From: a virus
Length of the DNA: 61,875 bases
Reading direction: 5' to 3' (one strand)
UHGV virus genome: UHGV-0856201
Part shown: positions 334-61,875 of the stretch, piece after piece
How the letters are laid out: every line of letters begins with the position of its first letter
Position numbering within the stretch: position 1 is the first letter of the stretch
Notes under the pieces: model-generated
What the model was told of the DNA's origin: nothing
Seen by the model: the letters and a program-made list of their open reading frames with translations, nothing else
Database searches by the model: none
Made by a program: the position numbers and the translations under genes

Positions 334-618
334 ATGTTCCACAACCCAAACTATGGACACCACCGCCTACAATTGAAAATAACTAACACCTGCATCCAAG
401 TCCACGGATTAACCTGTTCCTGCAACAATCCAGGATTCCACTTACTACAAATTCTAACCACCCAAATAGGAAAAGAACTAAAACCAGAAGAAAAAAATCA
501 AATTAAACAATGCCTTGGAAACCAAGATACTACCGCCGCCGGTGGAGACGACGACCATATTTTTGGAGACCTAGAAGAACTTTTCGAAAAAGATTTTACA
601 GACGCCGATACTGGGTAA
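334..618 (+). CDS. Anellovirus ORF2-like protein
   Basis: ATG at 334 in frame of ORF 235-618; H-x3-C-x-C-x5-H signature (HGLTCSCNNPGFH); overlaps ORF1 start as in anelloviruses. Confidence 0.55.
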   Translation: MFHNPNYGHHRLQLKITNTCIQVHGLTCSCNNPGFHLLQILTTQIGKELKPEEKNQIKQCLGNQDTTAAGGDDDHIFGDLEELFEKDFTDADTG

Positions 619-4453: not shown

Positions 4454-4625
4454 ACAGGCATTCGACCTTCTGGTTAAATACGACATTATTGTTATTCACT
4501 GTGACCGTGAACAAATCGTTTTCACAGACGATCTTCGTTATGAAGAACCTTATGACGGTGATAAACGGTCTGCCACGATTCGATTAATCGAACGTGTGGC
4601 ACGTGACAGAGGGGAACTATTATAA
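4443..4625 (+). CDS. hypothetical protein
   Basis: 60-aa ORF overlapping neighbours by a few nt (coupled). Confidence 0.35.
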   Translation: MNGEQAFDLLVKYDIIVIHCDREQIVFTDDLRYEEPYDGDKRSATIRLIERVARDRGELL

Positions 4626-4819
4626 TGGCTCAAACTATTTCTGAATTACTACCCACCGTTTATGGCAACGTGACAGAACTTGCCAGGCGGATTGGGTGTA
4701 ACAAAGCGACAGTTTATAAATATATGGATGACACCAACGGTGAATTTCACGCGGTGGTGAATGGTAAGTTGATGGTCAGACCAGGTTTTAAAGGACGTTA
4801 TACTCGTGACAAAAGATGA
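4625..4819 (+). CDS. small helix-turn-helix DNA-binding protein
   Basis: 64 aa; HTH-like segment TELARRIGCNKATVYKY. Confidence 0.45.
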   Translation: MAQTISELLPTVYGNVTELARRIGCNKATVYKYMDDTNGEFHAVVNGKLMVRPGFKGRYTRDKR

Positions 4820-4963
4820 AAAATTATTACGTGAACTTGAAATAGACTACGAACGAGCACAAAAAGCGTTACAGTTTCTGGAAGAACAGATCCGCGAAGT
4901 TAAGAACCGCATTCAGGGAACTGAAAAACGTAATCTTCCACGCCCGTAACACGTGATATAATC

Positions 4964-4992
4964 GGCCTCAGTGTGTTAACTGAGGCTTTTTT
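4964..4992 (+). terminator. rho-independent terminator
   Basis: hairpin ggcctcag...ctgaggc followed by TTTTTT. Confidence 0.7.
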
Positions 4993-5952
4993 ATGGCTAC
5001 TAAAGACCCATACCCGGATATTTCAGACAAGTATGACGCTCGCATTCGCGAAGCACTTGACGTTGTGTGGGAAAACGTGCGTCGTAGTGAGTCGTTAGCT
5101 AACCTGGAATACATCATTGAAACTCAGGGTATTGCCGGGCTACTCCCCATTCTTGAAACACTCCCTGATGAACTTAGTGCACAGTTGCGCCCGGTTATTG
5201 AAGACGCGATCGCCGAATCAGGTCGTGTAGTCGTTCAGGTTTTACCGAAAGCGGCTGTGACAGGTCCGGTTGTGTTCAGTCTGGTCACCCCACAGGTCAG
5301 TACATACATCAACAACTATGTCGGACAACTGATCCGTGAAGTCAGTGACGAAACAGTCAAAGCTGTTCAGATTGCTGTTAACCAGGGTGTGGTAACCGGA
5401 CGAAATCCGCGTCAGATAGCCCGTGATTTTCGATCATCAATAGGGTTAACCACACGGCAGGAAATGACGGTTCAACGTCTGCGATCAGCACTGGAAAAAG
5501 GTGAAGCAGGTTATGTGAACAGTCTGACCACTGTTACAGACAGTGCAAAGAACGCTGTAAGTGCCGGGAAACTATCACAGGCGAAGATTGACCAGATAAT
5601 CGAACAGACACGCTTGCGTTACGTAAAACAGCGTACAGAGACAATAGCGCGTACTGAATCACTTCGTGCTGTATCAGTTGGTCAGGATCAGGCAATACGT
5701 CAGGGACAGATTACCGGGGCTATTAGTAATGAATTGCTGAAGCGCTGGTTATATAGAAAGGATGGTCGGACACGTGATGCGCATATTTCCACGGGTGAAA
5801 CGAACGGTTGGATACCAATGGACAGACCGTTTTCAACGCCGTTAGGACCACTCATGTTTCCTCGTGATCCTAACGGTAGTGCCGCGAACGTGATTAATTG
5901 TCGTTGCAGGGTTGCTTATTCTCTCCCTCAAGATATAAATGTTATCCCGTGA
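4993..5952 (+). CDS. head morphogenesis protein (Mu F-like / SPP1 gp7-like)
   Basis: 319 aa; C-terminal NVINCRCRV motif and overall pattern typical of Mu-F family minor head proteins. Confidence 0.65.
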   Translation: MATKDPYPDISDKYDARIREALDVVWENVRRSESLANLEYIIETQGIAGLLPILETLPDELSAQLRPVIEDAIAESGRVVVQVLPKAAVTGPVVFSLVTPQVSTYINNYVGQLIREVSDETVKAVQIAVNQGVVTGRNPRQIARDFRSSIGLTTRQEMTVQRLRSALEKGEAGYVNSLTTVTDSAKNAVSAGKLSQAKIDQIIEQTRLRYVKQRTETIARTESLRAVSVGQDQAIRQGQITGAISNELLKRWLYRKDGRTRDAHISTGETNGWIPMDRPFSTPLGPLMFPRDPNGSAANVINCRCRVAYSLPQDINVIP

Positions 5953-6865
5953 TTATACGTATTAGAGTGGTTATATTTGGATTCCATTTTAACCACTCTG
6001 TACAACCATCGAACCCGGTTAATCCTGCAGATTCAAAATGAGAATGAAAATCTTTTTCAAGTGAACGAATGGTTTTACCATCAGAATTATATATTTCAAT
6101 AACATTGAATTCAAAAGGTGTTCTTTTCTTCAATATTTTTATTCTATTTTCAACATTGTTGCTAATACCTATTTTAACATAACTACCGCATAGAGATCTT
6201 AAAACATATAAGCTAGCTTTGTTTTTGATTTTAAAACCTGTTGCAGCGCAACCTGCACAACGTCTGTCAGTATGTAATAATGTTGTAGGTGTTGTTATAA
6301 ATTCACCATGTTTTTGACATTTAATTTTTATCTTACTGTATTGATTAACATACCCATTGACCCAACCCAAAAATTCATAATTTAATGACAAACATTTTTC
6401 ATTTATCTCTTTTTCTCTTATATGTAATGGTGTCTTTTTATTTTCAAAATAACATTTCTTACAGAAACTTTTATTTATAGTAATGTTGTTACCGGAAGAC
6501 ACCCACTGACCATGTTTAGTACATTCTATTAATGCTTTTGTGCGAACACCATGATAATTTTCAATCCATTTTACAAATTTATAACCTCGCGAGTTACAAA
6601 TATTAGTGATACGTTTTTCATATTCTTTTTGGTCTATACTATTTTTTAGTGCTATGTTCTCATTACTACATTTCTTACAAAAATTTCTACCATTCACTAT
6701 CAAATCAGAGGATGTTTCCCACTCACCATGTTTTTGACAATGCATTATTAGTCTACTTGATGCATTCTTGTAACCATTTAAGAATCTGACAAAATGATAA
6801 ATAGTACCTTTGCAAATTTCTGAAATCTCTGAAAGTCTTTCATGTTCTGTTTTTCGTTTAGTCAA
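5942..6865 (-). CDS. T5orf172-domain protein with Zn-ribbon repeats (homing-endonuclease-like), paralog 1
   Basis: Repeated CxKHGxW...CKKC modules; C-terminal YVLRS...KIGIS...GFDGCTEWL typical of T5orf172 domain. Confidence 0.65.
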   Translation of the reverse strand: MTKRKTEHERLSEISEICKGTIYHFVRFLNGYKNASSRLIMHCQKHGEWETSSDLIVNGRNFCKKCSNENIALKNSIDQKEYEKRITNICNSRGYKFVKWIENYHGVRTKALIECTKHGQWVSSGNNITINKSFCKKCYFENKKTPLHIREKEINEKCLSLNYEFLGWVNGYVNQYSKIKIKCQKHGEFITTPTTLLHTDRRCAGCAATGFKIKNKASLYVLRSLCGSYVKIGISNNVENRIKILKKRTPFEFNVIEIYNSDGKTIRSLEKDFHSHFESAGLTGFDGCTEWLKWNPNITTLIRIITG

Positions 6866-6941
6866 AATAAAACCTCCTGTTGTTTAACTCAATATTAGCA
6901 ACAGGAGGTTAAGTGGTCAAGCAAGATATTGGTTCGTTGGG

Positions 6942-7208
6942 TTAATCAGGTTCACGCCAGTCAAGAGGTCGCACATCACATAACAGACGAACATTATCTT
7001 CAAATTTTATGTTTACCCTGTGATGTGCCGTATCATTTTCATAAACAGAGGGCCATATTTCATAACCCTGAACAGTTCGTGCCACCCACTTGTTAATGCT
7101 TGCCAGATGGATCAACACTTCACAACCAACGGGAGGAAGGTTTTTACCATCCCAAATCTGTTTCATTCCCATAGCGGTTACTCCTGTTTCTCCCCGCAGA
7201 ACGGACAA
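6942..7208 (-). CDS. hypothetical protein
   Basis: 88-aa ORF; no recognised motif. Confidence 0.4.
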   Translation of the reverse strand: MSVLRGETGVTAMGMKQIWDGKNLPPVGCEVLIHLASINKWVARTVQGYEIWPSVYENDTAHHRVNIKFEDNVRLLCDVRPLDWREPD

Positions 7209-7453
7209 TAAGACATTTTGATGTTGGTTTCCAGGCGTGTGAAGTTCTTCGCCAGTTCACCGTTTTTCTTTTTAGCGCGGTATGTAAGACGATATTTCAA
7301 CATGACGTGTGTTTTACCAGACGTCAGACCGAAACACTGATTATCCCAGCCAACTTTATCAAACAGGTTAGTGCTGACTTCCGAACCTACTGGTACTTTT
7401 TCCATCAGACGTTTTTGAAGTTCGTCACCAACTTTTTTCATGCAATCACACAT
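7178..7453 (-). CDS. hypothetical protein with C-terminal Zn-binding motif
   Basis: 91 aa; CDC near N-term and CPFCG at C-term. Confidence 0.4.
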   Translation of the reverse strand: MCDCMKKVGDELQKRLMEKVPVGSEVSTNLFDKVGWDNQCFGLTSGKTHVMLKYRLTYRAKKKNGELAKNFTRLETNIKMSYCPFCGEKQE

Positions 7454-7617
7454 TATGCATACCTCGATAGGCGTTTTAATTTAACGATCAACCTTGTGAC
7501 TTTACTCCAGTCAGATTCAGTAAAGTCGTCCACATCTTTAGCCCATAACTCATTAACATGTCGTGGGTTATATGGTTCTTTCTTGACGGGCGGTTTCCTT
7601 TTCTTTTTACCCATAGG

Positions 7618-8169
7618 TTATAATCCAAGTAAAAGTTTAAGCGCACGTTTACGAACATCATCCTGTTTACGCAAAGCAGTTAATTCTTTTTGCAGATTTT
7701 CTTTCTCTTCCCGTAACTTTTTCATGTCTACCAACAACAAATCATAGGTCTTACGATCGACTTCAATTTCGTTACGTAGTTCGTCATTTTGTTTGTGCAA
7801 TTCTCCGATTTCACACTGTAGTTGCAGTAATGGCTGTGGTTGATGCGTCTGTTGCAACTTCTTTAATTTGGCTAATACAGCTTTGCGAACGGCTTTAGAT
7901 TCACGCATACCCACAAGAAGCATTTGATCCATGTTTAGATCGACCACTTCAAACGGTTTTCTATTACCACCTCTTCCCTGAAGTTTGGGTGTGAAAAGTT
8001 TCGTAACCAAAACTTGACCTTCTAATTCATCCTTAACTCTGGCTAAGAAATCATTATGACGAACCCAGACTTCCTCACCTGCAGCCACACGTGCTGGGTT
8101 GATAAAATTCTTCAAGAAATCCAGACTGGATATTGTGAATTCGTCATCAACATTCATAACTTCAAACAT
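7618..8169 (-). CDS. hypothetical protein with coiled-coil C-terminus
   Basis: Start at MFEVMN (8169), just after leader peptide; heptad-rich C-terminus. Confidence 0.45.
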   Translation of the reverse strand: MFEVMNVDDEFTISSLDFLKNFINPARVAAGEEVWVRHNDFLARVKDELEGQVLVTKLFTPKLQGRGGNRKPFEVVDLNMDQMLLVGMRESKAVRKAVLAKLKKLQQTHQPQPLLQLQCEIGELHKQNDELRNEIEVDRKTYDLLLVDMKKLREEKENLQKELTALRKQDDVRKRALKLLLGL

Positions 8170-8174
8170 AACCG

Positions 8175-8243
8175 TCAACCTCTTACTATTCCTACAATTA
8201 CAGGTACTGCGAAAATCATGAAAGCCAGTATGTAGTAAATCAT
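8175..8243 (-). CDS. small hydrophobic leader peptide (22 aa)
   Basis: MIYYILAFMIFAVPVIVGIVRG; RBS aaggag 8 nt upstream; directly downstream of promoter copy 3. Confidence 0.3.
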   Translation of the reverse strand: MIYYILAFMIFAVPVIVGIVRG

Positions 8244-8264
8244 CGCGTATCTCCTTTTTTCTTC

Positions 8265-8316
8265 CCGTTAACCACAAGATAGTCGTGTCGGTGTAATCCG
8301 TCAAGAATTATTTTAA
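8265..8316 (-). promoter_or_regulatory. conserved phage early promoter (copy 3)
   Basis: ccgtcaagaattattttaaag; -35 TTGACG 8299-8304 (minus), 17-nt spacer, -10 tatctt. Confidence 0.6.
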
Positions 8317-8319
8317 AGA

Positions 8320-8600
8320 TACAGCTAATACAGAACGTGTACTAACTATACATGGTTTTACATAGGTTTCATGATTTTGAGTTACAGCTAATACAGATTC
8401 TGTATTAGTAGATCATAGATTCATAGATTTCGTCATGTTTATTTTTTAACCAACCCCTTTCTATCTTATTCTTTTTATTATCTTTTTATAGATAACATAG
8501 AAAACATAGATAAATAGAAGAGTAGTATAAGTAGTAAAAGTTGCTGCAAGTAGGAGAGGTTTAAAAGGTATAGGGGGTCGCATACTTCCCATGAATCTAT
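8320..8600. other. AT-rich divergent intergenic region with repeats (candidate origin/regulatory hub)
   Basis: Flanked by outward-facing promoters; repeated acagctaataca; ~90-bp block also present at 47697-47785. Confidence 0.4.
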
Positions 8601-8645
8601 ACGTAAAATAATTCTTGACGGATTACACCGACACAACTACCCTGT
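8600..8645 (+). promoter_or_regulatory. conserved phage early promoter (copy 4)
   Basis: aaaataattcttgacggattacaccgac; -35 TTGACG at 8615-8620. Confidence 0.6.
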
Positions 8646-8673
8646 GGTTAAGAAAACAAGAAGGGATGAATGT

Positions 8674-9189
8674 ATGGATCCGAACATCAGAGTTGCTACA
8701 GACGAATTCATTCGTCGCGCCCGTAAAATTCACGGTGATCGTTACGACTACTCATTCAGCATTGTTGAAGATAGTTCCAGCACCGTGGTTATTATTGATC
8801 GTGAAACTAACACAGTGTTCTTTCAGGTCGTCTCTGAACATCTGGACGGTGTTGAACCAGTAACCACTGCTGTTGAACCAGTAACCACTGCTGTTGAACC
8901 AGTAACCACTGCTGTTGAACCAGTAACGACTACTGTTGAACCAGTAACGACTACTGTTGAACCGGTAACGACTGCTGTTGAACCAGTAACCACTGCTGTT
9001 GAACCAGTAACGACTACTGTTGAACCGGTAACGACTGCTGTTGAACCGGTAACGACTGCTGTTGAACCGATCAAGAATCTTTCTGAGATATTCGGTAACG
9101 TTGTAAACAGCGTGTATCACCAGTGCAATTATTCATCTGAAATGTTAGAATTTAGTCATGTTAAAACAATACGAGGACAATCCCCGTGA
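8674..9189 (+). CDS. repeat-containing protein (VEPVTTA x ~10)
   Basis: N-terminal FIRRARKIHGDRYDYS shared with T5orf172 paralogs; central 21-bp in-frame tandem repeats. Confidence 0.5.
   Translation: MDPNIRVATDEFIRRARKIHGDRYDYSFSIVEDSSSTVVIIDRETNTVFFQVVSEHLDGVEPVTTAVEPVTTAVEPVTTAVEPVTTTVEPVTTTVEPVTTAVEPVTTAVEPVTTTVEPVTTAVEPVTTAVEPIKNLSEIFGNVVNSVYHQCNYSSEMLEFSHVKTIRGQSP
8851..9070 (+). repeat. 21-bp tandem repeat (~10 units) inside CDS
   Basis: gttgaaccagtaac(c/g)act(g/a)ct repeated head to tail. Confidence 0.9.
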
Positions 9190-9596
9190 TTAACGTAAAA
9201 GTTAATAAGGTTGACAACTCACTACGTATGGTATTCGGTTGGGGTAGCATCTGTAAAAAACGTAATCAGGAGACAGGCCAGTTAGAAATTTACACAGACA
9301 CGGATAACGAGCAATTTCCCGAGGATGTCACTCTGAAAGCATGGTTGGACTTCATGAATTCTGATCAGCGCATTATGGATAATATGCACAATGAACAACC
9401 TGTTGGGAAAGTTGTGTTTGCGTTTCCGATGACTGAAGACATTGCGGCAAGTTTTGGGCTGGTTGATAAACTGGATCAGACAGGCGTCATTGTTGGTACG
9501 TTGATAACTGATGACGAAGTTTTGAAAAAGTTTCAGACTGGTGAATATACGGGATATAGTATCGGTGGGACTGCATATTATGAGGATGTGGAATAA
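9186..9596 (+). CDS. putative prohead protease
   Basis: 136 aa; position before scaffold/capsid genes; weak resemblance to XkdF-like proteases. Confidence 0.35.
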   Translation: MINVKVNKVDNSLRMVFGWGSICKKRNQETGQLEIYTDTDNEQFPEDVTLKAWLDFMNSDQRIMDNMHNEQPVGKVVFAFPMTEDIAASFGLVDKLDQTGVIVGTLITDDEVLKKFQTGEYTGYSIGGTAYYEDVE

Positions 9597-10861
9597 TGCG
9601 TACAGATGGTACTAATCATTTACGCCGCGCTAAATCGATGAAGATCGGTTTTCTGTCCGGCGTGACAAAACCTGCTCACGAGGGAGCAAATGCTCTTGTT
9701 CTTAAATCACATTCAGAACCGCCTGCTGTTGTTCTTTTAAAGTCAACATTTAGTGCAGCACTGGCTGAAAAAGAACTTGAACAGAAAGTTCGCGATTTCC
9801 TCTCTAATTCGTGGATGTTGAACGATGCGCTTTATGAAGCAGCAGAGGATATTGCAAAAGATGATTCTATTACCGATAAACAAGCAGCATTGCGTGACGC
9901 GGTAAATGAATATATTATAACGTTGCAACAGGCCGCTGGTATTTCGATGAATAAAGCGAAAGGTGGTAAAACTGAAGACGGTGAAGTTTTCCCGGCATCT
10001 GATTATGCATATGTACCAGATCCAGAAAAACCTTCAACCTGGAAACTTCGTTTAACAGCCACCCCTGGCGGTGAACCTGATGCGCGTATTGTAGGCGCTG
10101 CACTTGCTGCATTAGGTCCGGGTTATCGCGGTAACAAAGTTGAAATCCCTGAAGCCGATTTAGCAGGTGTGAAAAACAAAGTCCGATCCGCGTGGAAAAA
10201 ATTACACCCGGACCAGGAAGTACCTCAAGTTTTAAAAACGGCAGAGGAAATCGAAATGTCCGAACTGGAACTGGAAAAATACAAAGCCCTGGCTGAGATG
10301 AACGACGTCCATAAGGCGTATCATAATTCTCTGCCTGAATCTGATCAGGAAGCATTCCGTAAAATGGATGCGACTGCTCGCGATGTCCTCGTGACGATGG
10401 CTAAACAGGCTGATGAATCGTTTACCACGATTGCGGGTCAGGTTGTTCAGAAATCTGTAGCTGGTCCGATGTATGACGTTCTGAAATCTCAGGACGAACA
10501 ACTTCGCAAAGCACAGACTGAAGCGGCACTGGCGAAAGCTAAAGAAACCGTGAACGCTGATTTCGCACACATTCCGGGTGAAATGGTACAGAAAACCCAG
10601 ATGGTCATGACTCTTGAGCGTTTGCCGGAAGCGGATCGTAACTTCCTGGTTGAAAAACTCAAACAGGCCGATGAACTCTGGAAAGCACGTAAAGAGCCAG
10701 CAGCGCCGAATGGCAGTGGTAAAGGTTCCAGTGCACTGGAAGACATGATCAACGAATGGCTGAAAGCAAATCCGGGTAAAACACGCACCCAGGCTATGCA
10801 GGCAGTTTCTGCAACTAAAAAAGGTCAGGAAGCAATCGAAGCGATGCGAGGTGACGAATAA
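9596..10861 (+). CDS. putative scaffolding protein
   Basis: 421 aa, A/E/K-rich and coiled-coil-like; upstream of decoration and major capsid genes. Confidence 0.45.
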   Translation: MRTDGTNHLRRAKSMKIGFLSGVTKPAHEGANALVLKSHSEPPAVVLLKSTFSAALAEKELEQKVRDFLSNSWMLNDALYEAAEDIAKDDSITDKQAALRDAVNEYIITLQQAAGISMNKAKGGKTEDGEVFPASDYAYVPDPEKPSTWKLRLTATPGGEPDARIVGAALAALGPGYRGNKVEIPEADLAGVKNKVRSAWKKLHPDQEVPQVLKTAEEIEMSELELEKYKALAEMNDVHKAYHNSLPESDQEAFRKMDATARDVLVTMAKQADESFTTIAGQVVQKSVAGPMYDVLKSQDEQLRKAQTEAALAKAKETVNADFAHIPGEMVQKTQMVMTLERLPEADRNFLVEKLKQADELWKARKEPAAPNGSGKGSSALEDMINEWLKANPGKTRTQAMQAVSATKKGQEAIEAMRGDE

Positions 10862-11271
10862 TGGCTAAGAACAGCAAAATCTACTGGAACTATGAGCGCC
10901 CGACCCGTGCCGTTGCATCGGTGGCTATTTCGGCAGGTGTTGGTCTTGTTCTGGATACCAGTTTAGGTGACACTAATCAGTGTGTACCTAAATACAAACT
11001 CCCAACAGCTGGCGGTCGCATCGACGGTGTAGCTGTTGACGATGCCACTGCTGGTGTATTCTTCGACCTGGTAAACGAAAAAGAAAAATTTGTACCAGTA
11101 AAAGCATCTGCAGCGTTCGGTACAGGTGTCGAACTTGCTGTTGGTGCTGACGGACGATTCCAGACCGCTACTGCTGAACAACTGGTCGTGGCTATTTCTC
11201 AAACTGGTGCCACTGCTGAAAACCAGGTAGCTACCGCATTACTTATTGCACCGTATTCTAAAGGAGCATAA
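10861..11271 (+). CDS. putative head decoration protein
   Basis: 136 aa Gly/Ala/Val-rich; between scaffold and major capsid, as for lambda D. Confidence 0.4.
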   Translation: MAKNSKIYWNYERPTRAVASVAISAGVGLVLDTSLGDTNQCVPKYKLPTAGGRIDGVAVDDATAGVFFDLVNEKEKFVPVKASAAFGTGVELAVGADGRFQTATAEQLVVAISQTGATAENQVATALLIAPYSKGA

Positions 11272-11274
11272 CCG

Positions 11275-12294
11275 ATGAGTTACAAACAGAATTTTCGCGA
11301 CGTTGGCGCACCAGATACATTCCTGTCTAACTTTTCTGTAAGTTACTGGCAGGATACGTCACTGTTTGTCGGTACTCGTTATTTCCCGGTAGTTCCTGTT
11401 AACCAGGCTGCTGGTAAATTCCTGACTTACCCGAAAGGTTATTTCGGTCGTCCGGTTAACTCCAAACGTGCCGAAGATGGTGTTGCTAATACTATTGGTT
11501 ACAAAACCAAAAACCAGGGTTACACCGTTGATGACGATGCGATCCGCATCTTTATTTCTGACAAAAAACGTGCAAACGTTCAAAATGGTCAGCAACTGGA
11601 TATGGAAGCGTCAGCAGTAACCACAGATGCGTTGCTGATCAACAAAGAAGTGGATTTTGCTGAAAAATTCCTGACCGCTGGTAAATGGGGTCTTGATTTC
11701 AAGGGTAAAGACGCGTCTCCGTCCACGGGCGAATTCCTGAAATGGTCTAATGCGAATGCCGATCCGATTGGTGATATCCTGTCACGTCGTGTTGCGTTCT
11801 CTCTGGCATCCGGTGGTCGTCGCTGGAACAAAGCGCTGATGACGCTGGACGTGTATGACGCACTGACCCGTAGCCCGGCTGTTATTGACCGCATTAACGG
11901 TGGTTCTACCACTCAGAATCCGGGGATCGTGACTAAACAGGCACTGGCTGCACTGCTGGAAGTTGACGAATTGGAAATCATGCAGTCCGTGGTCAACATG
12001 GCTGCTGATGGCGTTGAAGACAGTAACGGCAATCCGCTGTCAGACTTCCAGTTTGCTAAAACTGGTGTACTGATGCTCAACTATGTTGAACCGACTGTTG
12101 GCAATATGAAACCTGTTGCGGCTGCGGGCTTCGTGTGGAACGAGTTCATCGGTCTGGGCGTTAACAACGGTCCGTCTATCCGTACCTATCCGGGTGTCGA
12201 AGGCCGTCGTGGTAATTTCGTTGAAGCGGAATTTGCCATTGATGTTCAGATGGTTGCACCTGACCTGGGCGTTCTGTTCTACGACGCGGTTTAA
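11275..12294 (+). CDS. major capsid protein
   Basis: 339 aa; gene order protease-scaffold-decoration-capsid; followed by terminator. Confidence 0.65.
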   Translation: MSYKQNFRDVGAPDTFLSNFSVSYWQDTSLFVGTRYFPVVPVNQAAGKFLTYPKGYFGRPVNSKRAEDGVANTIGYKTKNQGYTVDDDAIRIFISDKKRANVQNGQQLDMEASAVTTDALLINKEVDFAEKFLTAGKWGLDFKGKDASPSTGEFLKWSNANADPIGDILSRRVAFSLASGGRRWNKALMTLDVYDALTRSPAVIDRINGGSTTQNPGIVTKQALAALLEVDELEIMQSVVNMAADGVEDSNGNPLSDFQFAKTGVLMLNYVEPTVGNMKPVAAAGFVWNEFIGLGVNNGPSIRTYPGVEGRRGNFVEAEFAIDVQMVAPDLGVLFYDAV

Positions 12295-12313
12295 TAACAA
12301 CTGTGGTATCATT

Positions 12314-12341
12314 AAGGGGTGGCTTATGCTGCCCCTTTTTT
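12314..12341 (+). terminator. putative rho-independent terminator after capsid gene
   Basis: aagggg...cccctt stem followed by T-run. Confidence 0.5.
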
Positions 12342-12356
12342 CATGAGGTTAAAATC

Positions 12357-12710
12357 ATGCGTAATTCATATGATCCGTCACTGAAATATGTTTTCACCCG
12401 TCCGATACTGTGGAACGGTAAACAGATGTCCGCTGGCGATAAAGTATCAACATCAAAAGCTACCCCGGCTGTTTTAAATGCCCTTGTGCGTATGCGCCAC
12501 ATTGAACCAGCTACTGCGACTGTTGAAGAACCAGTGATTGTAGCAACCGAAGAATCGGCATCAACCACATCTGCTGAAATCCGACGTGACGCGCCAAAAA
12601 CCTATAACGTTTATGTTATGGGTATGCCGATGAATTCAGAATCGTTTAGTAGTAAAAGTGCCGCTGCTGAATGGTGTGAATCACAAGGCTTGACATATAA
12701 CTATTCTTGA
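12357..12710 (+). CDS. hypothetical protein
   Basis: ATG at 12357 with RBS gaggt; 117 aa. Confidence 0.45.
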   Translation: MRNSYDPSLKYVFTRPILWNGKQMSAGDKVSTSKATPAVLNALVRMRHIEPATATVEEPVIVATEESASTTSAEIRRDAPKTYNVYVMGMPMNSESFSSKSAAAEWCESQGLTYNYS

Positions 12711-13392
12711 CCTATTGTTAGTTGTAGATAGTTTTCGTGGCGACTTTGCGGACTTTTTAGAAACTGACCACAAAGATAAATGCAAACGAAGAACGTTTTC
12801 TGATGGCGGCGTAATAGCCTGTAAGTCAGCAAGGTCTTCCGATTCCTTGTAAATAAATTCGGCGCACTGGCCCGGTGTGATTAATAATGGGCACCCACGA
12901 ATGAGAGTACTGTGATTGATCGTCGTTCTTGCGCGCAAAGTCTGCTCGAAGACAGTATTCTCATTCGTGGGTAACAACGGGCATATCGCCTTAGTAAATC
13001 CCTCAAGGGTGCGGCGAATAATCCGGTAATGTCGTTGCCGTAAGCCACACGAAACGTGGCACACAACAGGTAAGAGCATTGGGTAATGTAAAGCTGTGCT
13101 GCGACGATTACCATACATCTCAGTGCTCTTATCGTTGTGGTGAATTGCAGTTCTCAGAAACAACCAGAAGATAAGCGCCTGGCACTGCAACCAAACACTC
13201 GCTGATAAGGAGGTGATCCTTATCTTGCTGGCGGGAAAGCCGCAAATCGTGGGTAAAGCATGTTGTGAAACATCCTGAACTGCGTGTCGTTTTACATAAC
13301 TGGTTATTCACGTGTCACGCATAGGGGTATGTTGGGACGTCAGGTGTGGATGACCAGTTATGTAAAACCCTCATTATCACCCAGAGCCATTT
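12711..13392. other. long non-coding structured region inside structural module
   Basis: No convincing ORF on either strand; 19-bp inverted repeat 12894-12912/12952-12970; hairpin gataagga-ggtga-tccttatc. Confidence 0.4.
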
Positions 13393-13418
13393 GCCGTCTG
13401 TTTAAGACGGCTTTTTTT
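13393..13418 (+). terminator. rho-independent terminator
   Basis: gccgtctgtttaagacggc followed by TTTTTTT. Confidence 0.65.
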
Positions 13419-13457
13419 CGTGCTAATATAACGAAAACATTTCTCACAGGTGATCAC

Positions 13458-13868
13458 ATGGCTATTACAGTTGAAGGTATTCGTTATTTGATCAGTGTCC
13501 CTGATGTTACTGATGAACAAATTCAGTGGTACATTGACAACGGTTATACAAATCCTCTCAGTATTTGCGTCGCTCTCTGTGATTATATGGCGTCTATTGC
13601 CAGCAACGATACTGACATTAAAGTAGGTCCGATCTCACTCAGCAGTAGTCAGTCAGCAGACGCCTGGAATAAACTTAAAAAAGATTTTATTTTACGTATT
13701 AATACTGGCGCTGATTCAGGTGGCGGTTTGTTAGGTGGTTTTATGGGTGTCGGTGGAGCTACATTAACTGGCGCTGGTATGCAACCTGCTATTCAGCGTG
13801 GTCAGTTCGACAACCCACCTGTAACACTTGAAAGCGGTGGTCGTGCACTTAACGAAGGTGAACGGTGA
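13458..13868 (+). CDS. hypothetical structural protein (head-tail region)
   Basis: ATG 13458 after terminator; 136 aa, Gly-rich C-terminus. Confidence 0.4.
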   Translation: MAITVEGIRYLISVPDVTDEQIQWYIDNGYTNPLSICVALCDYMASIASNDTDIKVGPISLSSSQSADAWNKLKKDFILRINTGADSGGGLLGGFMGVGGATLTGAGMQPAIQRGQFDNPPVTLESGGRALNEGER

Positions 13869-14242
13869 TGACAGACAAACGTCAAAGTGTCCTGAATGGT
13901 GTTACTCGTGCACTTGCTGAAGTAGGTGAGGATTTGACGGTAAAACGTGTGACAACAGTTCCCAACCCGTCTAATCCTACATTACCGGGTACAACCGTTA
14001 CTGAATCACACACCTGCCGTGGTTATATTTACCCATTAGAAAAGTGGGATCCGACTACTATGACCCGAATAGCCACAACGATGGTAATTATGGATAGTCA
14101 GAGTTTTGAACCACGATTTGTTCCTGATCGGGGTGATGTTGTGGTTGATGAACGTGGTAAAGAATATCGCCTTCTTGATCGTCAAAACCCACGATTGTTA
14201 GGGGATGATATGGCATTTATTCACCCTGTTGGAGCGGTATAA
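13865..14242 (+). CDS. hypothetical structural protein (head-tail region)
   Basis: 125 aa; ATGA overlap with upstream gene. Confidence 0.4.
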   Translation: MMTDKRQSVLNGVTRALAEVGEDLTVKRVTTVPNPSNPTLPGTTVTESHTCRGYIYPLEKWDPTTMTRIATTMVIMDSQSFEPRFVPDRGDVVVDERGKEYRLLDRQNPRLLGDDMAFIHPVGAV

Positions 14243-15214
14243 CTATAACATCCGTATCAGAGTGGTTATATTTGGATTCCATTTTAACCACTCTGTACAA
14301 CCATCGAACCCTGTTAATCCTGCAGATTCAAAATGAGAATGAAAATCTTTTTCAAGTGAACGAATGGTTGCCCCGTGTCCATTCAATTTTTCTATTACTT
14401 GAAAATCAAATGGTGTTTTTCTACGAAGTGTATTAATTCTTTGCTCTACACAATTACTGATACCTATTTTAACGTAACGACCGCATGTGGACCGCAAGAC
14501 ATAAAGTGTTGCATACTTACCAGCTTTAAACCCTGTTTTACTACAGTTTGGACAACCTTTTTGTTTACTAAGAAAAGAATTAATTGTTGTAACAAAATCA
14601 CCATGCGTTGAACACTTTAATGATATTTTAGATTTCCATGTCGGATGTTCGTCGAATATCTTATTAAAAAACAACCCTGTTTCTTTACATCTATTTGTTA
14701 TTTCAATTTCTCGTTCTTGTTTAGTTTTCTGTCTATTCGTTATACACAATGGACAATCAACAGATGTAAAGATTAGTCTATTGACTGTTGTCTCCCATCC
14801 ACCATGATCAATACAGCTCAGCAAACAAACAGAATTTCCATTTTGAAAATTAGTTTTAAATTTAATAAACTTTGATTTAGAATCTGTTAAACTGTTTTTA
14901 ATCTGTGCAATTCTTAACCCTTTTGTGGTTCGTGTTCCACCACAGATTGGACAACCAGAACCATTCAAAAAATGATAACATTTAGTGTCCCATTCCCCGT
15001 GTGTAACACAAGATAAAATAATTCGTGATTCTTTGTTTTTAAACCCGTCTTTCCATTTTATAAATTTGTAATTTTTTGATTGACAAATATCTTTTATGTT
15101 ATGCTCTAGTTGTTCTTTGGTTAGTCTTTTACCGCCCATTTTTCTACCTTTAGGTTTGTCAATGACTAGCAAAATCAATGATATAAATCGTATTACTGGA
15201 GTGTTTAAAGACAT
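14243..15214 (-). CDS. T5orf172-domain protein with Zn-ribbon repeats, paralog 2
   Basis: C-terminus nearly identical to paralog 1 (GFDGCTEWLKWNPNITTLIR); repeated C..HGxW..C modules. Confidence 0.65.
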   Translation of the reverse strand: MSLNTPVIRFISLILLVIDKPKGRKMGGKRLTKEQLEHNIKDICQSKNYKFIKWKDGFKNKESRIILSCVTHGEWDTKCYHFLNGSGCPICGGTRTTKGLRIAQIKNSLTDSKSKFIKFKTNFQNGNSVCLLSCIDHGGWETTVNRLIFTSVDCPLCITNRQKTKQEREIEITNRCKETGLFFNKIFDEHPTWKSKISLKCSTHGDFVTTINSFLSKQKGCPNCSKTGFKAGKYATLYVLRSTCGRYVKIGISNCVEQRINTLRRKTPFDFQVIEKLNGHGATIRSLEKDFHSHFESAGLTGFDGCTEWLKWNPNITTLIRML

Positions 15215-15590
15215 AAAAGCCGACTTACAAGATTTTACGGATCGTCAAGTCATTAGATATGTTTTAACACTACGTAACATACTCATAAGTGAGCCTCCTG
15301 ATGGTACACCAATATTGAGTGGCTGGGCAAGCAACAACTGGTGGTTCGATCAGGGGCAACCCGCTAATAGTCCTGATACACCAACAGGTAATGTTGAAGC
15401 CAGTAAAGCACGTATCGAACAGGATACGGTCACTATCAGCAGTATTAAAGTTAATGGTCAGGAACTGCATATTACTAACAACGTTCCTTACATTGGGGTT
15501 CTCAATGGTGGTAGCAGTACACAGACACCTTCCGGGTTTGTCGAACGTGCTATATTAAAAGCCGGAATAATGGTGAGGTTTAATCAGTGA
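15162..15590 (+). CDS. putative neck / tail-completion protein
   Basis: Start at internal Met 15162 (MTSKINDINR); position between head and tail genes. Confidence 0.35.
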   Translation: MTSKINDINRITGVFKDIKADLQDFTDRQVIRYVLTLRNILISEPPDGTPILSGWASNNWWFDQGQPANSPDTPTGNVEASKARIEQDTVTISSIKVNGQELHITNNVPYIGVLNGGSSTQTPSGFVERAILKAGIMVRFNQ

Positions 15591-16012
15591 TGACACTCTC
15601 AGATGTTTCAGGAATTGTTTATAATCGCGTTCTGGCGAATCTCCCCGTGGAAATTACGCCTGACAGATTTACAATCGCTTCTGGTCAACTTCCTGACGAC
15701 ACTACAGAAAAACCAGGTCTGATTCTGACACACAATCCCGGTCCGTGGACAATAACCACGCTGGGTGGGGAAGGTGTTTGTCGCCGTCGTTTAAGAACAG
15801 GAAACGTTTTTTTACAGGTACGCACACCTGCTCAGTATGGTATGGACACTTTGAGTATTGATATTGCGGATCGGCTTGCAAAATTATTTGAAGGTGTCTG
15901 GCAGGATCGCCCGTTAATTTACACGAGTGTTGATATTCGTCATCAGGGTCGTGATAACGCGTGGTTTTTAACGAACGTCGTACTTAGTTACGAATACGAA
16001 GAAATATATTAA
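15587..16012 (+). CDS. putative tail-completion protein
   Basis: 141 aa; coupled to upstream gene; precedes major tail gene. Confidence 0.35.
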   Translation: MMTLSDVSGIVYNRVLANLPVEITPDRFTIASGQLPDDTTEKPGLILTHNPGPWTITTLGGEGVCRRRLRTGNVFLQVRTPAQYGMDTLSIDIADRLAKLFEGVWQDRPLIYTSVDIRHQGRDNAWFLTNVVLSYEYEEIY

Positions 16013-16048
16013 ACTACGAATGATTGCAATCAAACGAGGCTTAGAACA

Positions 16049-17506
16049 ATGGCTGAATCAATTTTTAAATGTTCGCAAACACCTGCGGCTGATGTAAACG
16101 CAACACGACTCAGTGTAGCAAAAGTCTGTGAACCTGTTTCTGGTACACCCTGGACGGTTCAACAACCGAATGAAATCAGTTCTTACAGTGCTGATATTAC
16201 AAAGACTCAGCGTACACCGATCAGTACGGACCGATCTGCACGTAAAGGCACGGTAACTAACGTTGAAGTTGCACCGGGCTTTCAGACAGACCTGACACTT
16301 GATGCGTTCCGCTACTGGGGTGACGGATTCCTTTATAGTAAATGGGTCGGTGCTGGTGCAATTGATATCGACGTTACCAGTGTTGACGCTGACGCTTATA
16401 ACGTTACTACTCTTGATGCGGCATTACCTGAAGGTGCTCTTGTTTATGCGACAGGTTTTACACTGGCTGCAAACAACGGTTTGAAAACTGTAGGTACTGA
16501 TAGTACCACTACTGCTATCAACGTGTCAGGGCTTAGTGCCGAAGCGTCACCGCCTGCTGAAGCTCGTTTATATCTCGTGGGGTATGCTGCAGCGTCTGGT
16601 GACATCGCTGTTAACAGTAATGGTCAGTTGACGTCTACCACCCTGGATTTTTCCACACTGGGTTTAGTACCGGGACAGTATATTTATATTGATGGTCTAA
16701 CACAGTCTGTAACCAGTAAAATGGCCCGTGTGACTATGGTTGGCGATCATGTTCTGACTCTCGCTAACAGTGAATTCACCACTGAAGAAGGTACGGGTAA
16801 AACTGTACGTTTATTTGTTTCCAGTTTTGTTCGAAACGTTCCTGTTGACTCTGCAGAGTTCGTTAAAACTGAATACACAATGGAAGCACGTTACAACACG
16901 ACACCTGTCATTTATGAATATGCGCGTGCTGTAGCTGCAAATCAGATGACGATCAACGCGCCGTTGACTGAAAAAATGACAATGGATCTGACGTTTGTCG
17001 CACAAGACTTGTCAGCACCGTCAGAAACCGCGTTACCGGGTTCCGGGTATATTGAATTCGTGGCTAACGAAGCGTACAACACCGTAACGAACCTGAACCG
17101 TGTACGACTGACCGGTATTGATGATAGTGGCCTCAGTACGTTCCTGAAAGACGTTACTGTCACCGTGAATAACAACGTGTCAGGTGAAAACGTGCTGGGC
17201 GTGATGGGTGCTGCGTTTACCAACATCGGTAACCTGGAAATCACGATGGAAACTGAAACGGTGATGACGGACGGTACTGTATTGGCTGCGATCCGTAACA
17301 ACGCGACCGTTAACTTCGAACTTGCTGGGGTAAACGGTGATGGTGCAATCGTGGTTAACATTCCTGCGATGACACTGGGCGACGGTTCTAAGAACCTGGC
17401 AACTGGCGAAAAAGTGAAAGTTACTGTCAGTGGTAACGCTCACGAAGAAGAATCGATCGGCTTTATGATTGGTTTCAGCTTGTTCCCGTACTTGCCTACA
17501 GCATGA
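16049..17506 (+). CDS. major tail protein (large, possibly with Ig-like extension)
   Basis: 485 aa, Thr/Val-rich; directly upstream of G/GT chaperone and tape measure genes. Confidence 0.5.
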   Translation: MAESIFKCSQTPAADVNATRLSVAKVCEPVSGTPWTVQQPNEISSYSADITKTQRTPISTDRSARKGTVTNVEVAPGFQTDLTLDAFRYWGDGFLYSKWVGAGAIDIDVTSVDADAYNVTTLDAALPEGALVYATGFTLAANNGLKTVGTDSTTTAINVSGLSAEASPPAEARLYLVGYAAASGDIAVNSNGQLTSTTLDFSTLGLVPGQYIYIDGLTQSVTSKMARVTMVGDHVLTLANSEFTTEEGTGKTVRLFVSSFVRNVPVDSAEFVKTEYTMEARYNTTPVIYEYARAVAANQMTINAPLTEKMTMDLTFVAQDLSAPSETALPGSGYIEFVANEAYNTVTNLNRVRLTGIDDSGLSTFLKDVTVTVNNNVSGENVLGVMGAAFTNIGNLEITMETETVMTDGTVLAAIRNNATVNFELAGVNGDGAIVVNIPAMTLGDGSKNLATGEKVKVTVSGNAHEEESIGFMIGFSLFPYLPTA

Positions 17507-17526
17507 CATGGTGGTTGGTAGTGGTT

Positions 17527-17549
17527 GCCCGGTTAACGCCGGGCTTTTT
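17527..17549. terminator. bidirectional rho-independent terminator
   Basis: gcccggttaacgccgggc followed by TTTTT. Confidence 0.65.
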
Positions 17550-17550
17550 G

Positions 17551-17718
17551 TTAGCGTTTGGCGAGATAGTCACAACGGGCGATTGCTAAATCTGCAGTCT
17601 TGTACGAAGACTCACTTGTTGAATGGGTTGTTCCAATAACCATTACATGATATCCGTCTTTGTTTTTTAGAACCCAAAACTTACCGTTTTCATGAATAAT
17701 ATTTTTCTCTTTGGTCAT
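17551..17718 (-). CDS. small hypothetical protein (55 aa)
   Basis: MTKEKNIIHENGKFWVLKNKDGYHVMV...; downstream of promoter copy 5. Confidence 0.35.
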   Translation of the reverse strand: MTKEKNIIHENGKFWVLKNKDGYHVMVIGTTHSTSESSYKTADLAIARCDYLAKR

Positions 17719-17739
17719 CGTCTTATCCTCAGTTCGTTT

Positions 17740-17792
17740 CGTTGAGTTAAAGATACCTTAACAGGTGTAATTCGTCAAGAATTATTTTAAAT
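17740..17792 (-). promoter_or_regulatory. conserved phage early promoter (copy 5)
   Basis: ttcgtcaagaattattttaaat; -35 TTGACG 17773-17778 (minus). Confidence 0.6.
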
Positions 17793-17855
17793 ATCTTGCG
17801 TAATTTGTACAGAACTATTACTATCTAATCGTCTACTACATAAAAGGTAAAAACC

Positions 17856-18278
17856 ATGTCAAAGTTTGACCATCTGAAAAAAGCACTTTCTCCATTAGTG
17901 CTGAAGTCTTCTGCTGAACTGATTTTAAATGAAAATTTCAGTATCACCGTGTTGAACCTGAACACCGCTAACCAGGTATATAACGTAACAGTTGCGGACT
18001 ATGTAAAACAGAACGGTGTGTTGTCTGAAAACTTCTTTGAAAAACTGTGGAATCAGGAATATACACCAGAAGGTGTTAAGTTCGTGGCTAACGTTCTTAT
18101 GCTGGACTGGAAACTGATTGGTGAAGATGACAAACCGGAACCATTCAGTGTTGAAGAAGCTATTGAACTGTTAAGTGATGAACGTTTTGGTCAGGTGATC
18201 TACAGCCGTGTTATTCAGTTCGCAATTAATTCCGCATTCTTCCAGGACGAATGGGAGAAACAGATTGAAAAAAACTGA
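17856..18278 (+). CDS. tail assembly chaperone (G-like)
   Basis: 140 aa between major tail and tape measure genes; ends at slippery heptamer A_AAA_AAC. Confidence 0.6.
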   Translation: MSKFDHLKKALSPLVLKSSAELILNENFSITVLNLNTANQVYNVTVADYVKQNGVLSENFFEKLWNQEYTPEGVKFVANVLMLDWKLIGEDDKPEPFSVEEAIELLSDERFGQVIYSRVIQFAINSAFFQDEWEKQIEKN

Positions 18279-18574
18279 TCGACTTCCTCTTGTGGAACGA
18301 TAAGACAGACGGGGACGACCTGGACTGGGTTACACAAGGGGCGGCTGCACGTGGTATATCTGTTCCGGTTGTTGTACAGAAACGTCCTGAATTGCGACCT
18401 GATGCTATCTTTTACTGGAATGCTTATTTGGATCTGATGGAAGCTGATTGGGTTGCTTGTGAGCGTTATGCACGGGTGTATAACGTTGATGTACAATTCT
18501 TGTGGAAATTATTGGTAGCATTGCGGTCTGCACGTGTTGTCGAGATGAAGAAAAATAAACAAAAGCCCGGTTAG
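17856..18574 (+). CDS. tail assembly chaperone frameshift product (G-T-like fusion via -1 frameshift)
   Basis: Zero-frame gaa aaa aac tga; -1 frame opens at 18275 and runs to 18574 (..LIDFLLWNDKTDGDD..). Confidence 0.5.
18269..18275 (+). other. -1 programmed frameshift slippery heptamer A_AAA_AAC
   Basis: Heptamer in X_XXY_YYZ register just before the G stop codon. Confidence 0.55.
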
Positions 18575-18588
18575 TTCCGGGCGTTTTC
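18564..18588. terminator. putative bidirectional terminator
   Basis: gcccggttagttccgggc then gttttc, between convergent genes. Confidence 0.45.
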
Positions 18589-19485
18589 ATTTATGTAGTC
18601 GAGGATTGCAGGAGAGTATTTAAACCACTCTGTAGCACCGTCAAAGCCTTTGAGACGCGCATTAAGTTCACGGAAGACCTTGTGTACCTCTTGTTCCAGT
18701 TTGTAAGCATCAGCGCCGTGTGGAAACAGGTACGACACGAGTTTAACCACTGGGTGTGTTGTTTCGCGTTGTAGTTGTCGTAGTCGCCGTTTTAAGTCGT
18801 TTGTGATACCGACTTTAAGCAGAGTAGGGCACTTTTTATCGTCAGCTAACACGTAGAGTGTACCGGGTTCTGACGGGTTAAAACCTGTTTGTGAACACTG
18901 AGGACAACCATGTTTTTTATGCAAATGCATGGCTGGACGTTGTTCAAACACTCCATGCTCTGGGCAGATGATTTTTATTCGAGTGAAATTGTTAATATAC
19001 GCCACCAACGAATAGTCGTAACGGTCCCCATGAACTTCGCGAGCACGAGTAATGAAATCTTCGGCGCCTAAGCGTTTTTGTTCAGACGACTGTTTACGAG
19101 CACATTGTGGGCAACCTTTCCCGTGAACATGATTGCCCGGTGTCTGTTCAAACACATCATGTATCGGACAGATAATCTTCACAGGTGTGCACCAATTCAC
19201 ATACTCCACCAGCGAATAGTCATACTTGTCACCATGAACTTCACGAGCACGAGTGATAAACTCTTCTGTGGTTAAACGTTTTTGTTCAACAGTACATTGG
19301 GTACAACCTGCTTTCATTGAAGTGTGATTGTTCGGAGTCTGTTCAAATACCCCGTGTTCGGGGCAGATAATTTTTACTTTGGTGTTAGCACCTTCATACT
19401 CCACTAGCGAGTAATCGTATTTGTGCCCATGAACTTCACGGGCACGCGTGATAAACTCTTCTGTGGTTAAACGTTTCCTACTCAT
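18571..19485 (-). CDS. T5orf172-domain protein with three Zn-ribbon repeats, paralog 3
   Basis: Three repeats of FITRAREVHGxKYDYSLV..KIICPEHGVFEQ; C-terminal GTLYVL..LKVGIT..GFDGATEWF. Confidence 0.65.
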   Translation of the reverse strand: MSRKRLTTEEFITRAREVHGHKYDYSLVEYEGANTKVKIICPEHGVFEQTPNNHTSMKAGCTQCTVEQKRLTTEEFITRAREVHGDKYDYSLVEYVNWCTPVKIICPIHDVFEQTPGNHVHGKGCPQCARKQSSEQKRLGAEDFITRAREVHGDRYDYSLVAYINNFTRIKIICPEHGVFEQRPAMHLHKKHGCPQCSQTGFNPSEPGTLYVLADDKKCPTLLKVGITNDLKRRLRQLQRETTHPVVKLVSYLFPHGADAYKLEQEVHKVFRELNARLKGFDGATEWFKYSPAILDYINENARN

Positions 19486-19486
19486 C

Positions 19487-19666
19487 TTATTTGTCGCTTT
19501 TTAACACAGACCAGATTAACGCACCTAACCAACCGACGAATGTCCAACCCGCAAAGATGTTAAGTAAAATAATTGCTGTTTGTTGTTTATGTTTAACGTT
19601 AATCGCGATGAGTGCTGGGATCAGATATACAGCAGCGATTAAGAAAAGAATGATGAAAGTAGCCAT
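19487..19666 (-). CDS. small membrane protein, superinfection-immunity-like
   Basis: 59 aa MATFIILFLIAAVYLIPALIAINVKHKQQTAIILLNIFAGWTFVGWLGALIWSV; resembles Imm_superinfect family. Confidence 0.45.
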   Translation of the reverse strand: MATFIILFLIAAVYLIPALIAINVKHKQQTAIILLNIFAGWTFVGWLGALIWSVLKSDK

Positions 19667-19689
19667 TTTGTAACCCTCCTTTGTTTTGA

Positions 19690-19738
19690 TGTTTGTAGGT
19701 TACACGTCCTTGTGTAATCCATCAAGAATTATTTTAAA
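19690..19738 (-). promoter_or_regulatory. conserved phage early promoter (copy 6)
   Basis: ccatcaagaattattttaaacg; -35 TTGATG; upstream segment near-identical to copy 1. Confidence 0.55.
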
Positions 19739-19800
19739 CGTTTGTCGCTTTTTAGACCCGTGTTAAACTGTGTACATGCTTCACGAAAAGGTTAACCAAC

Positions 19801-61840: not shown

Positions 61841-61875
61841 AACCACAAAATTTGCATTGCCGACCACAAACGAAC

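Follow-up and report, generated by a model that had tools for sequence, protein, structure and literature searches.

Phage genes that join a T5orf172 nuclease domain to one to several zinc (Zn)-finger modules of the CapR, DUF723 or DUF4397 type were described by Barth, Dunham and Seed (2023, PMC10448857), who reported that such genes adjoin capsid, chaperone and tape-measure genes, exchange domains and are located at recombination boundaries. The sole member of the family with demonstrated nuclease activity is Odn of ICP1, whose activity depends on a conserved Glu (summarised in PMC10448857), and sequence-specific DNA binding has been demonstrated for CapR of the Vibrio cholerae satellite PLE (PMC8096241). 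Here we analyzed the virus genome UHGV-0856201 (61,875 nucleotides, referred to in full as the window), which carries three paralogous minus-strand genes of this kind, g1, g2 and g3. Comparison with related phages suggests that they are probably homing-endonuclease genes of the free-standing type, belonging to the T5orf172 branch of the GIY-YIG superfamily, and that each has its own cognate site. An earlier reading of the letters alone (the sequence-only reading) had taken them for homing-endonuclease-like selfish genes, and this interpretation is now supported by fixed-site polymorphism, replaced target sequences and an imported flank.

To place the inserts, we compared the window with its relatives. 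In a megablast search, positions 4000-21000 matched 9NA-group (Nonanavirus/Sashavirus) phages of Escherichia and Salmonella (PJ16, BDX09P1, Bas82, AVIO78A, Sergei, Sasha, 9NA and PDP46) at 83-97% identity, and by this similarity the window phage is classed as a Sashavirus/Nonanavirus (9NA-like) enterobacterial phage. The top query coverage did not exceed 76%, and the parts of the query left uncovered are the inserts under study. Local BLAST of the window against six relatives (Bas82, PJ16, AVIO78A, Sergei, PDP46 and 9NA) gave the insert-free alleles that the sequence-only reading had proposed as a check: filled and empty alleles were resolved to the base, with flanks about 94-98% identical. 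All three sites are polymorphic for presence and absence of the gene at a fixed position, and the breakpoints are identical across relatives. Site 1 is empty in Bas82, PJ16, AVIO78A and 9NA; in Sergei, the empty left junction is identical and the right flank is unaligned. Orthologues of g1 occupy the same site in PDP46 (98.7% protein identity) and in Klebsiella phage KP13-27 (79.5%), where the gene likewise follows the head-morphogenesis gene in convergent orientation. Site 2 is empty in all six relatives. The best match to g2 in the phage collection was only 45%, and the large protein database returned matches of 99, 84, 82, 72, 68 and 63%; the three orthologues that were located (84, 68 and 63%) all lie between the same 124-amino acid (aa) gene and Neck1. 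Orthologues of g1 and g2 thus keep the same slot down to 63-80% identity. Site 3, between the tail-chaperone terminator and the tape-measure gene, is empty in AVIO78A, Sergei, PDP46 and 9NA and filled in Bas82 (98.4% identity to g3, same site) and PJ16. The PJ16 copy measures 705 bp vs 915 and has approximately one module fewer, lost by recombination between internal repeats. The superinfection-immunity-family gene in insert 3 adjoins the endonuclease gene in Bas82 and PJ16 and is absent along with g3 in AVIO78A, Sergei and PDP46. The empty-site sequences are conserved among non-carriers, that of site 1 even in 9NA, whose backbone is about 80% identical.

The inserts do not merely interrupt their sites. 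They replaced 17, about 26 and 9 bp at sites 1, 2 and 3, respectively, and at sites 1 and 2 the adjacent codons were recoded. At site 1, the replaced bases lay within the final codons of the head-morphogenesis gene; most of its last 12 codons are altered, some of them synonymously, and the length is the same (GTT GCT TAT TCT CTC CCT CAA... replaces GTA CAG TAC AGT TTG CCG GAA...). The recoded end is common to the g1-positive PDP46, and all g1-free relatives have the other end; the original end, now orphaned on the far side of the insert, can be aligned with the final 23 nt of the Bas82 gene. A promoter-like site is located within this insert at 6920-6892. At site 2, the lost bases ran from the stop codon of the upstream gene into the beginning of Neck1. 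The insert restores both: it brings its own stop codon, and Neck1 now begins with MTSKIND... where the empty allele has MAKANVND... A foreign origin is probable for inserts 1 and 2, as judged by a GC content of 30-32% against 43% for the phage. Flanking DNA was imported most clearly with g2: within the 5′ end of Neck1, the window differs from every g2-free close relative by 9, 15 and 9 mismatches per 50 bp (33/150) and then by approximately none, and from g2-positive lineages and 9NA by only 1-3 mismatches per 50 bp. Therefore, g2 brought into this backbone a short stretch of DNA from a donor that was more distantly related, that is, a co-conversion tract. For g1, the imported sequence amounts to only 40 recoded bases. 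At insert 3, the right edge marks a mosaic boundary and not a co-conversion tract, and the 5′ end of the tape-measure gene is closer to the g3-free Sergei and PDP46 than to the g3-positive Bas82 and PJ16.

The three minus-strand open reading frames (ORFs) proposed by the sequence-only reading all exist, but g2 most likely starts at 15139 and not at 15214, because its six closest relatives are all 298 aa long (MGGKRL) and the longer ORF overlaps the start of Neck1. The profile search proposed along with them placed all three proteins above the Pfam gathering scores of two GIY-YIG-related families, with 24.9, 23.9 and 55.2 bits for g1, g2 and g3 to PF10544 T5orf172 (cut-off 20) and 43, 34.6 and 46.7 bits to PF13455 MUG113 (cut-off 22.3). 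The Zn-ribbon modules matched PF21817 CapR in g1 and g2 (77 and 67 bits, cut-off 24) and PF05265 DUF723 in g3 (48 bits, cut-off 21), and in PHROGs all three proteins belong to phrog_681 'endonuclease' (E 1e-64 to 4e-85). The predicted C-terminal motif is present as GFDGCTEWL in g1 and g2 and as GFDGATEWF in g3. The CxxH[G/D]x[W/F]...CxxC modules are likewise real, although each protein has exactly three of them and not two to three; each consists of a C..H...C..C core with four predicted Zn ligands, and the nuclease domain follows the third. This domain has the GIY-YIG alpha/beta fold and the conserved core residues (the first-strand Tyr, K-[IV]-G-[IV], the Arg and the Glu of TEW). Nine Cys are invariant across 21 homologues, and Y213, K224, G226, R234, E263, H267 and E283 do not vary among 21 sequences that include g1-g3. 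Amino acid identity is 44-45% between g1 and g2 and 26-29% between g3 and either of them. The ratio of nonsynonymous to synonymous substitution rates (dN/dS) between orthologues is 0.05-0.23 (0.05-0.11 for g1 and 0.15 for g3) without frameshifts; the genes are under purifying selection. The claim of an antisense placement holds for g2 and g3, which lie inside plus-strand structural operons, but not for g1, which closes a minus-strand cluster (6942-8304) and converges with the head-morphogenesis gene. No further paralogue was found in the window by tblastn apart from the N-terminus of the gene g4, described below. The features are collected in Table 1.

Table 1. Positions of the three genes, their inserts and associated features in the window.
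Feature	Position	Strand	Description
g1	5942-6865	-	307 aa; three CapR-type Zn-ribbon modules and T5orf172 nuclease domain
g1 module cores	6668-6739, 6452-6523, 6248-6319	-	GFDGCTEWL at 5990-6016
Insert 1	5913-6922		1010 bp, 30.1% GC (phage 43.4%); replaces 17 bp (ACAGTACAGTTTGCCGG)
Replacement head-morphogenesis 3′ end	5913-5952	+	borne by insert 1; VAYSLPQDINVIP in place of VQYSLPEDIGSLG
Orphaned original head-morphogenesis 3′ end	6923-6945	+	AAGATATTGGTTCGTTGGGTTAA, now downstream of insert 1
47-nt block	5964-6010; second copy 14259-14305	-	identical in g1 and g2; GATGGTTGTACAGAGTGGTTAAAATGGAATCCAAATATAACCACTCT
g2	14243-15139	-	298 aa (MGGKRL...); three Zn-ribbon modules and T5orf172 domain
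g2 module cores	14942-15010, 14744-14815, 14543-14614	-	GFDGCTEWL at 14285-14311
Insert 2	14236-15176		941 bp, 32.5% GC; replaces ~26 bp
Co-conversion tract, Neck1 5′ end	15177-15350	+	~170 bp
g3	18571-19485	-	304 aa; three DUF723-type Zn-ribbon modules and T5orf172 domain
g3 module cores	19294-19365, 19102-19170, 18895-18966	-	GFDGATEWF at 18622-18648
Insert 3	18595-19758		1164 bp, 43.1% GC; g3, immunity gene and upstream region; replaces 9 bp
Superinfection-immunity-family gene	19487-19666	-	59 aa; Pfam Imm_superinfect PF14373, 62.5 bits
Bidirectional terminator-like hairpin	18565-18582		common to tail-chaperone gene (+) and g3 (-); final g3 codons encoded within it
g4	8674-9189	+	Zn-less N-terminal module and C-terminal tail kept; Zn module and catalytic core lost
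21-bp repeat (VEPVTTA) in g4	8850-9068	+	10.4 copies, 94% matches (TRF); from residue 60

These features suggest how the genes may spread. When a carrier phage and a gene-free relative co-infect one cell, the three tandem Zn-ribbon modules (CapR/DUF723 type) would read an extended sequence found only in the empty allele, and the C-terminal GIY-YIG-type domain would cut nearby. Recombinational repair on the carrier template would then copy the gene and flanking DNA into the broken genome. The carrier itself would be immune because its site lost 9-26 bp to the insert, and sites 1 and 2 would be further protected by recoding that left the structural genes intact.

The near-identical 3′ segment of g1 and g2 that the sequence-only reading had pointed out was confirmed: 114 of 119 nt are identical between 5952-6070 and 14247-14365, within a BLAST high-scoring pair of 239 bp at 82.8% (5955-6191 vs 14250-14486), and the remainder of the two genes has only 32-62% nucleotide identity. 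The explanation offered for it, recent duplication or gene conversion, stands in its second part. In the 30 nt just upstream of the identical 47-nt block, g1 of the window departs from PDP46 g1 at six positions, of which five match g2 of the window, and therefore a short intragenomic conversion tract is indicated. A recent duplication in situ was considered and rejected. The two proteins share 44-45% of their residues and have separate orthologues, each at its own site, and thus they are old paralogues. Most of the shared segment is preserved in all g1 and g2 lineages, at synonymous sites too. The 47-nt block itself is nearly invariant, synonymous sites included, in PDP46 g1 and in orthologues of g2 whose protein identity is as low as 63%, in contrast to the conserved peptide YVKIGISN, which shows ordinary synonymous variation. 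Repeated conversion between paralogues and a function at the nucleotide level are both candidates to account for this conservation.

A fourth member of the family, g4, illustrates what may be the end of the same life cycle, as a copy in which the nuclease core was deleted. The sequence-only reading had described this ORF as the N-terminal module without the nuclease domain. Its module is indeed homologous (45% over 51 aa to g3, E 1e-7) and the nuclease domain is absent, but the Zn ligands have been lost as well: it aligns with the first half of the g3 modules, has C to D and H to T changes at ligand positions and has no CxxC. More than 100 g4 variants of 108-171 aa occur in similar contigs, and the copy number of the repeat therefore varies. 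Both strands are open across the repeat, which gives rise to spurious antisense ORFs. In a relative, the same slot and strand, directly upstream of the 136-aa head gene and overlapping its start, are occupied by a 239-aa protein (P0124) with the Zn-less N-terminus, 1.5 repeats, an intact DUF723 module, the T5orf172 domain and the tail YSSEML...RGQSP. The alignment of g4 with P0124 shows that the ends are common and that the internal part is gone from g4. P0124 and g3 share 63% identity over 235 aa and approximately 78% (90/115) over the last 115 residues. Because an intact member is found in the same slot and the Zn ligands of g4 are lost, we interpret g4 as a decayed fourth T5orf172 gene and not as a domesticated CapR-type DNA-binding protein.

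Several observations weigh against homing as the explanation. According to the authors of PMC10448857, homing by T5orf172 genes is experimentally unverified, and purifying selection fits a function beneficial to the phage equally well. No common sequence or motif was evident among the three empty sites, which therefore give no clue to recognition rules. Promoter-like matches were not enriched (36 vs 29.8 in shuffled sequence), nor were terminator matches (14 vs 13.2). Site 1 has no long co-conversion tract beyond its recoded bases, and the mosaicism of its left flank does not track the presence of g1. Insert 3 has a backbone-like GC content and a second gene aboard, and the mobile unit there is therefore a two-gene cassette. 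Finally, the contig is chimeric at its ends, yet each junction was seen independently in isolates or other assemblies.

Part of this evidence would agree with domesticated genes, encoding nucleases or DNA-binding proteins that are kept for the benefit of the phage and do not spread by homing today; they might cut competitors or satellites, like Odn, or repress transcription at their binding sites, like CapR or I-TevI. The low dN/dS over long divergence, the linkage of g3 to the superinfection-immunity gene, the domesticated relatives of the family in the ICP1/PLE system and weak matches of the nuclease domain to PDC-S57, a candidate defence family, are all in line with this possibility. However, the patchy distribution among near-identical genomes, the replaced and recoded targets and the imported flank are signatures of recent insertion, and g4 shows that such genes are lost. 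In addition, g1-g3 retain the nuclease domain, which a domesticated CapR-type regulator would lack, the Pfam profile search found no RepA_N or other satellite-derived DNA-binding domain, the PADLOC matches are weak and at the domain level only, and a search of NCBIfam gave no match. We consequently regard domestication as unlikely. Passive accessory genes ('morons') moved by ordinary homologous or illegitimate recombination, in which the nuclease plays no part, are improbable on other grounds. Nuclease-free mosaic places do exist in 9NA-like genomes (7622-8291, 12720-13130 and the N-terminus of the tape-measure protein), and the mosaicism of the site-1 flank is independent of g1, but each paralogue lineage stays in a single precise slot, even between genera and over 63-99% divergence, and passive shuffling therefore leaves this site fidelity unexplained. 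Moreover, the inserts lie within conserved coding ends, which they rebuild, and the catalytic-type residues conserved in the family are all intact under purifying selection.

It is extremely improbable that the arrangement is an assembly artefact, namely the consensus of a mixed population in which no single genome has all three genes. Independent genomes exclude an artefact for each junction: the junctions recur in the PDP46 isolate for g1, in the Bas82 isolate for g3 and in an NCBI Salmonella assembly and several Logan contigs for g2. The region 4000-22000 is also collinear with the relatives. In line with an artefact are the chimeric ends, with their anellovirus ORF1 halves, 127-bp terminal overlap and stray 127-bp terS fragment, and the single-nucleotide deletion beside a homopolymer run in the tape-measure gene. 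The co-occurrence of all three genes in one genome is documented only by this contig. A different and rather doubtful proposal is that the genes and the immunity gene are devices of inter-phage competition: they would keep out the markers of co-infecting relatives and thereby determine the boundaries of head/tail exchange, and the 47-nt block would be a cis-acting recombination handle (or an RNA signal) that lets the paralogues swap nuclease modules and retain their own DNA-binding arrays. Homing by free-standing endonucleases remains our preferred interpretation for g1, g2 and g3.

The ends of the contig deserve a separate description. The phage portion extends from 1680 to 60187 and has a perfect 127-bp terminal overlap (1680-1806 = 60061-60187). 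The outer segments, 1-1679 and 60188-61875, are anellovirus (torque teno virus) sequence: the ORF at 510-1619 matches positions 3-301 of the TT_ORF1 profile (E 5e-79), and the ORF at 60171-61454 matches positions 352-525 (E 2e-39), so that the phage genome is placed between two halves of an anellovirus ORF1. The stray terS fragment is at 60288-60414. This structure suggests that two circular viral genomes were fused into a chimera during assembly with k = 127. The tape-measure gene (19801-22703, plus strand) is broken near 21516 into two ORFs of 597 and 293 aa by a 1-nt deletion beside an A7 run, relative to Sergei, and has a further 12-nt in-frame deletion at 21537; the break may be due to an error in sequencing or assembly, or the frameshift may be genuine.

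Other genes of the window and its relatives were also noted. A 228-aa ORF at 7618-8304 (minus strand) has anti-repressor-like PHROG matches (phrog_20910 and phrog_8235). The segment at about 7622-8291 is unaligned to five of the six relatives, and PJ16 aligns from about 8177; it appears to be another mosaic replacement, one without an attached nuclease gene. Two minus-strand genes encode an RdgC-family protein (49505-50419, 382 bits) and a Dam-family adenine methyltransferase (30269-30907, 111 bits). Among the relatives, 9NA gp46 (L005 11831-12727, a minus-strand insert) is a T5orf172 homologue with 33% identity to g1 over 91% of its length, located between the tail terminator and major tail protein genes. 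A 207-aa minus-strand gene lies between the tail tube and chaperone genes in Sergei (L004 13213-13836) and also in L009, and L010 has a second T5orf172 gene (1-608, minus strand) at the position of site 3.

One further element lies between the ORFs at 12303-12710 and 13284-13868. At 12690-13145 (plus strand), the best promoter match of the region (TTGACA-17-TATTGT, 12690-12718) leads a structured RNA-like element of about 420 nt (12726-13145) with a core of about 170 nt. The 420-nt stretch folds far better than shuffled sequences (z -4.8). At this slot the element is present in PJ16 and absent in Bas82, Sergei, AVIO78A and PDP46. Its core, however placed, matches 863 phage records and 156 of 5,426 complete E. 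coli genomes, almost always unannotated, with phage carriers from many unrelated families, among them T1-like/Skatevirus phages, the P22-like HK620, Ackermannviridae, Ounavirinae, N4-like Schitoviridae, Klebsiella siphoviruses and a Vibrio phage. It is often found in one of two contexts. Its place in lambdoid prophages and HK620 is the late leader, between Q/pR'/qut and holin, and in pYD38-A, MK54, ESh22 and JH2 a tRNA-Arg(UCU) gene follows it directly on the same strand. A 10-codon frame, AN[D/E]xxxL[A/M][V/A]A, without an in-frame start codon is present in each of the 15 copies examined. The frame reads ANEERFLMAA-stop in the window and ANDDVVLMAA, ANEEMYLAVA, ANDN[T/V/A][F/Y]LAVA, ANDDLMLMAA or ANDSEVLMAA in other copies; the ANDSEVLMAA copy has the synonymous GCT AAT as its first two codons, and the stop codon of the frame lies within a hairpin loop. 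The tag of E. coli transfer-messenger RNA (tmRNA) is ANDENYALAA. Compensatory changes were found in 8 of 35 predicted pairs, and 97.7% of cells were paired vs 37-44% in slid controls; the compensatory changes show covariation that supports the helices of the element. Rfam gave only sub-threshold tmRNA matches, ARAGORN found no tmRNA or tRNA-like domain in the element, and a plain alignment to E. coli ssrA was not significant beyond GCAAACGA. In a tmRNA survey (Hudson et al., PMC4131195), mycobacteriophages and Bacillus phage G are the only phages listed with ssrA, and the element was absent from the literature searched.

T5orf172 genes are among the commonest phage nuclease genes, with family matches in about 800-1,100 of 50,697 phage records, and labels such as 'hypothetical protein' or 'HNH endonuclease' on genes of this kind are wrong or uninformative. 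Owing to the insert, carriers and non-carriers have different ends of the adjacent structural genes. The lineage includes cultivable E. coli phages that differ in one insert (g3 in Bas82, g1 in PDP46, none in AVIO78A). Together with the exact empty-site sequences and the series from intact to decayed copies, they make homing, the recognition code of the Zn ribbons and the tract length directly testable. The value of the locus lies in these clean natural alleles, because homing by the family is still unverified (PMC10448857).

Among described systems, g1-g3 differ from the free-standing GIY-YIG homing endonucleases of phage T4 (Seg proteins, with I-TevI as the structural reference). In those, the nuclease is N-terminal and is combined with a helix-turn-helix and a Zn-finger linker, whereas in g1-g3 it is C-terminal and preceded by tandem Zn ribbons of the treble-clef type, and the sequence similarity is at the fold or clan level only. 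With CapR of PLE (Netter et al. 2021, PMC8096241), g1 and g2 share the Pfam family of the DNA-binding module, PF21817, but CapR, a satellite protein that represses transcription, has no nuclease domain and g1-g3 keep theirs. With Odn, the origin-directed nuclease of ICP1 (Barth et al. 2021, PMC8263062), they share the T5orf172 nuclease domain. The BASEL paper that reported Bas82 does not discuss these genes. The closest likeness is to the T5orf172 genes of ICP1 and other phages (PMC10448857), in domain order, in location among structural genes and in the presence of several paralogues per genome. The in-frame repeat loss of ICP1 gp174* resembles that of the PJ16 copy of g3, and the nucleases found at exchange boundaries resemble the right edge of insert 3. 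The 9NA-like Nonanavirus/Sashavirus phages are not among the enriched groups named in that study, and '9NA' is absent from its text. The present locus also differs in that the alleles, the recoded gene ends, the imported flank and the decayed and intact copies are resolved here at the base level. Overall, our findings all fit the T5orf172 homing-endonuclease class of PMC10448857, and the type of element is one that has already been described.

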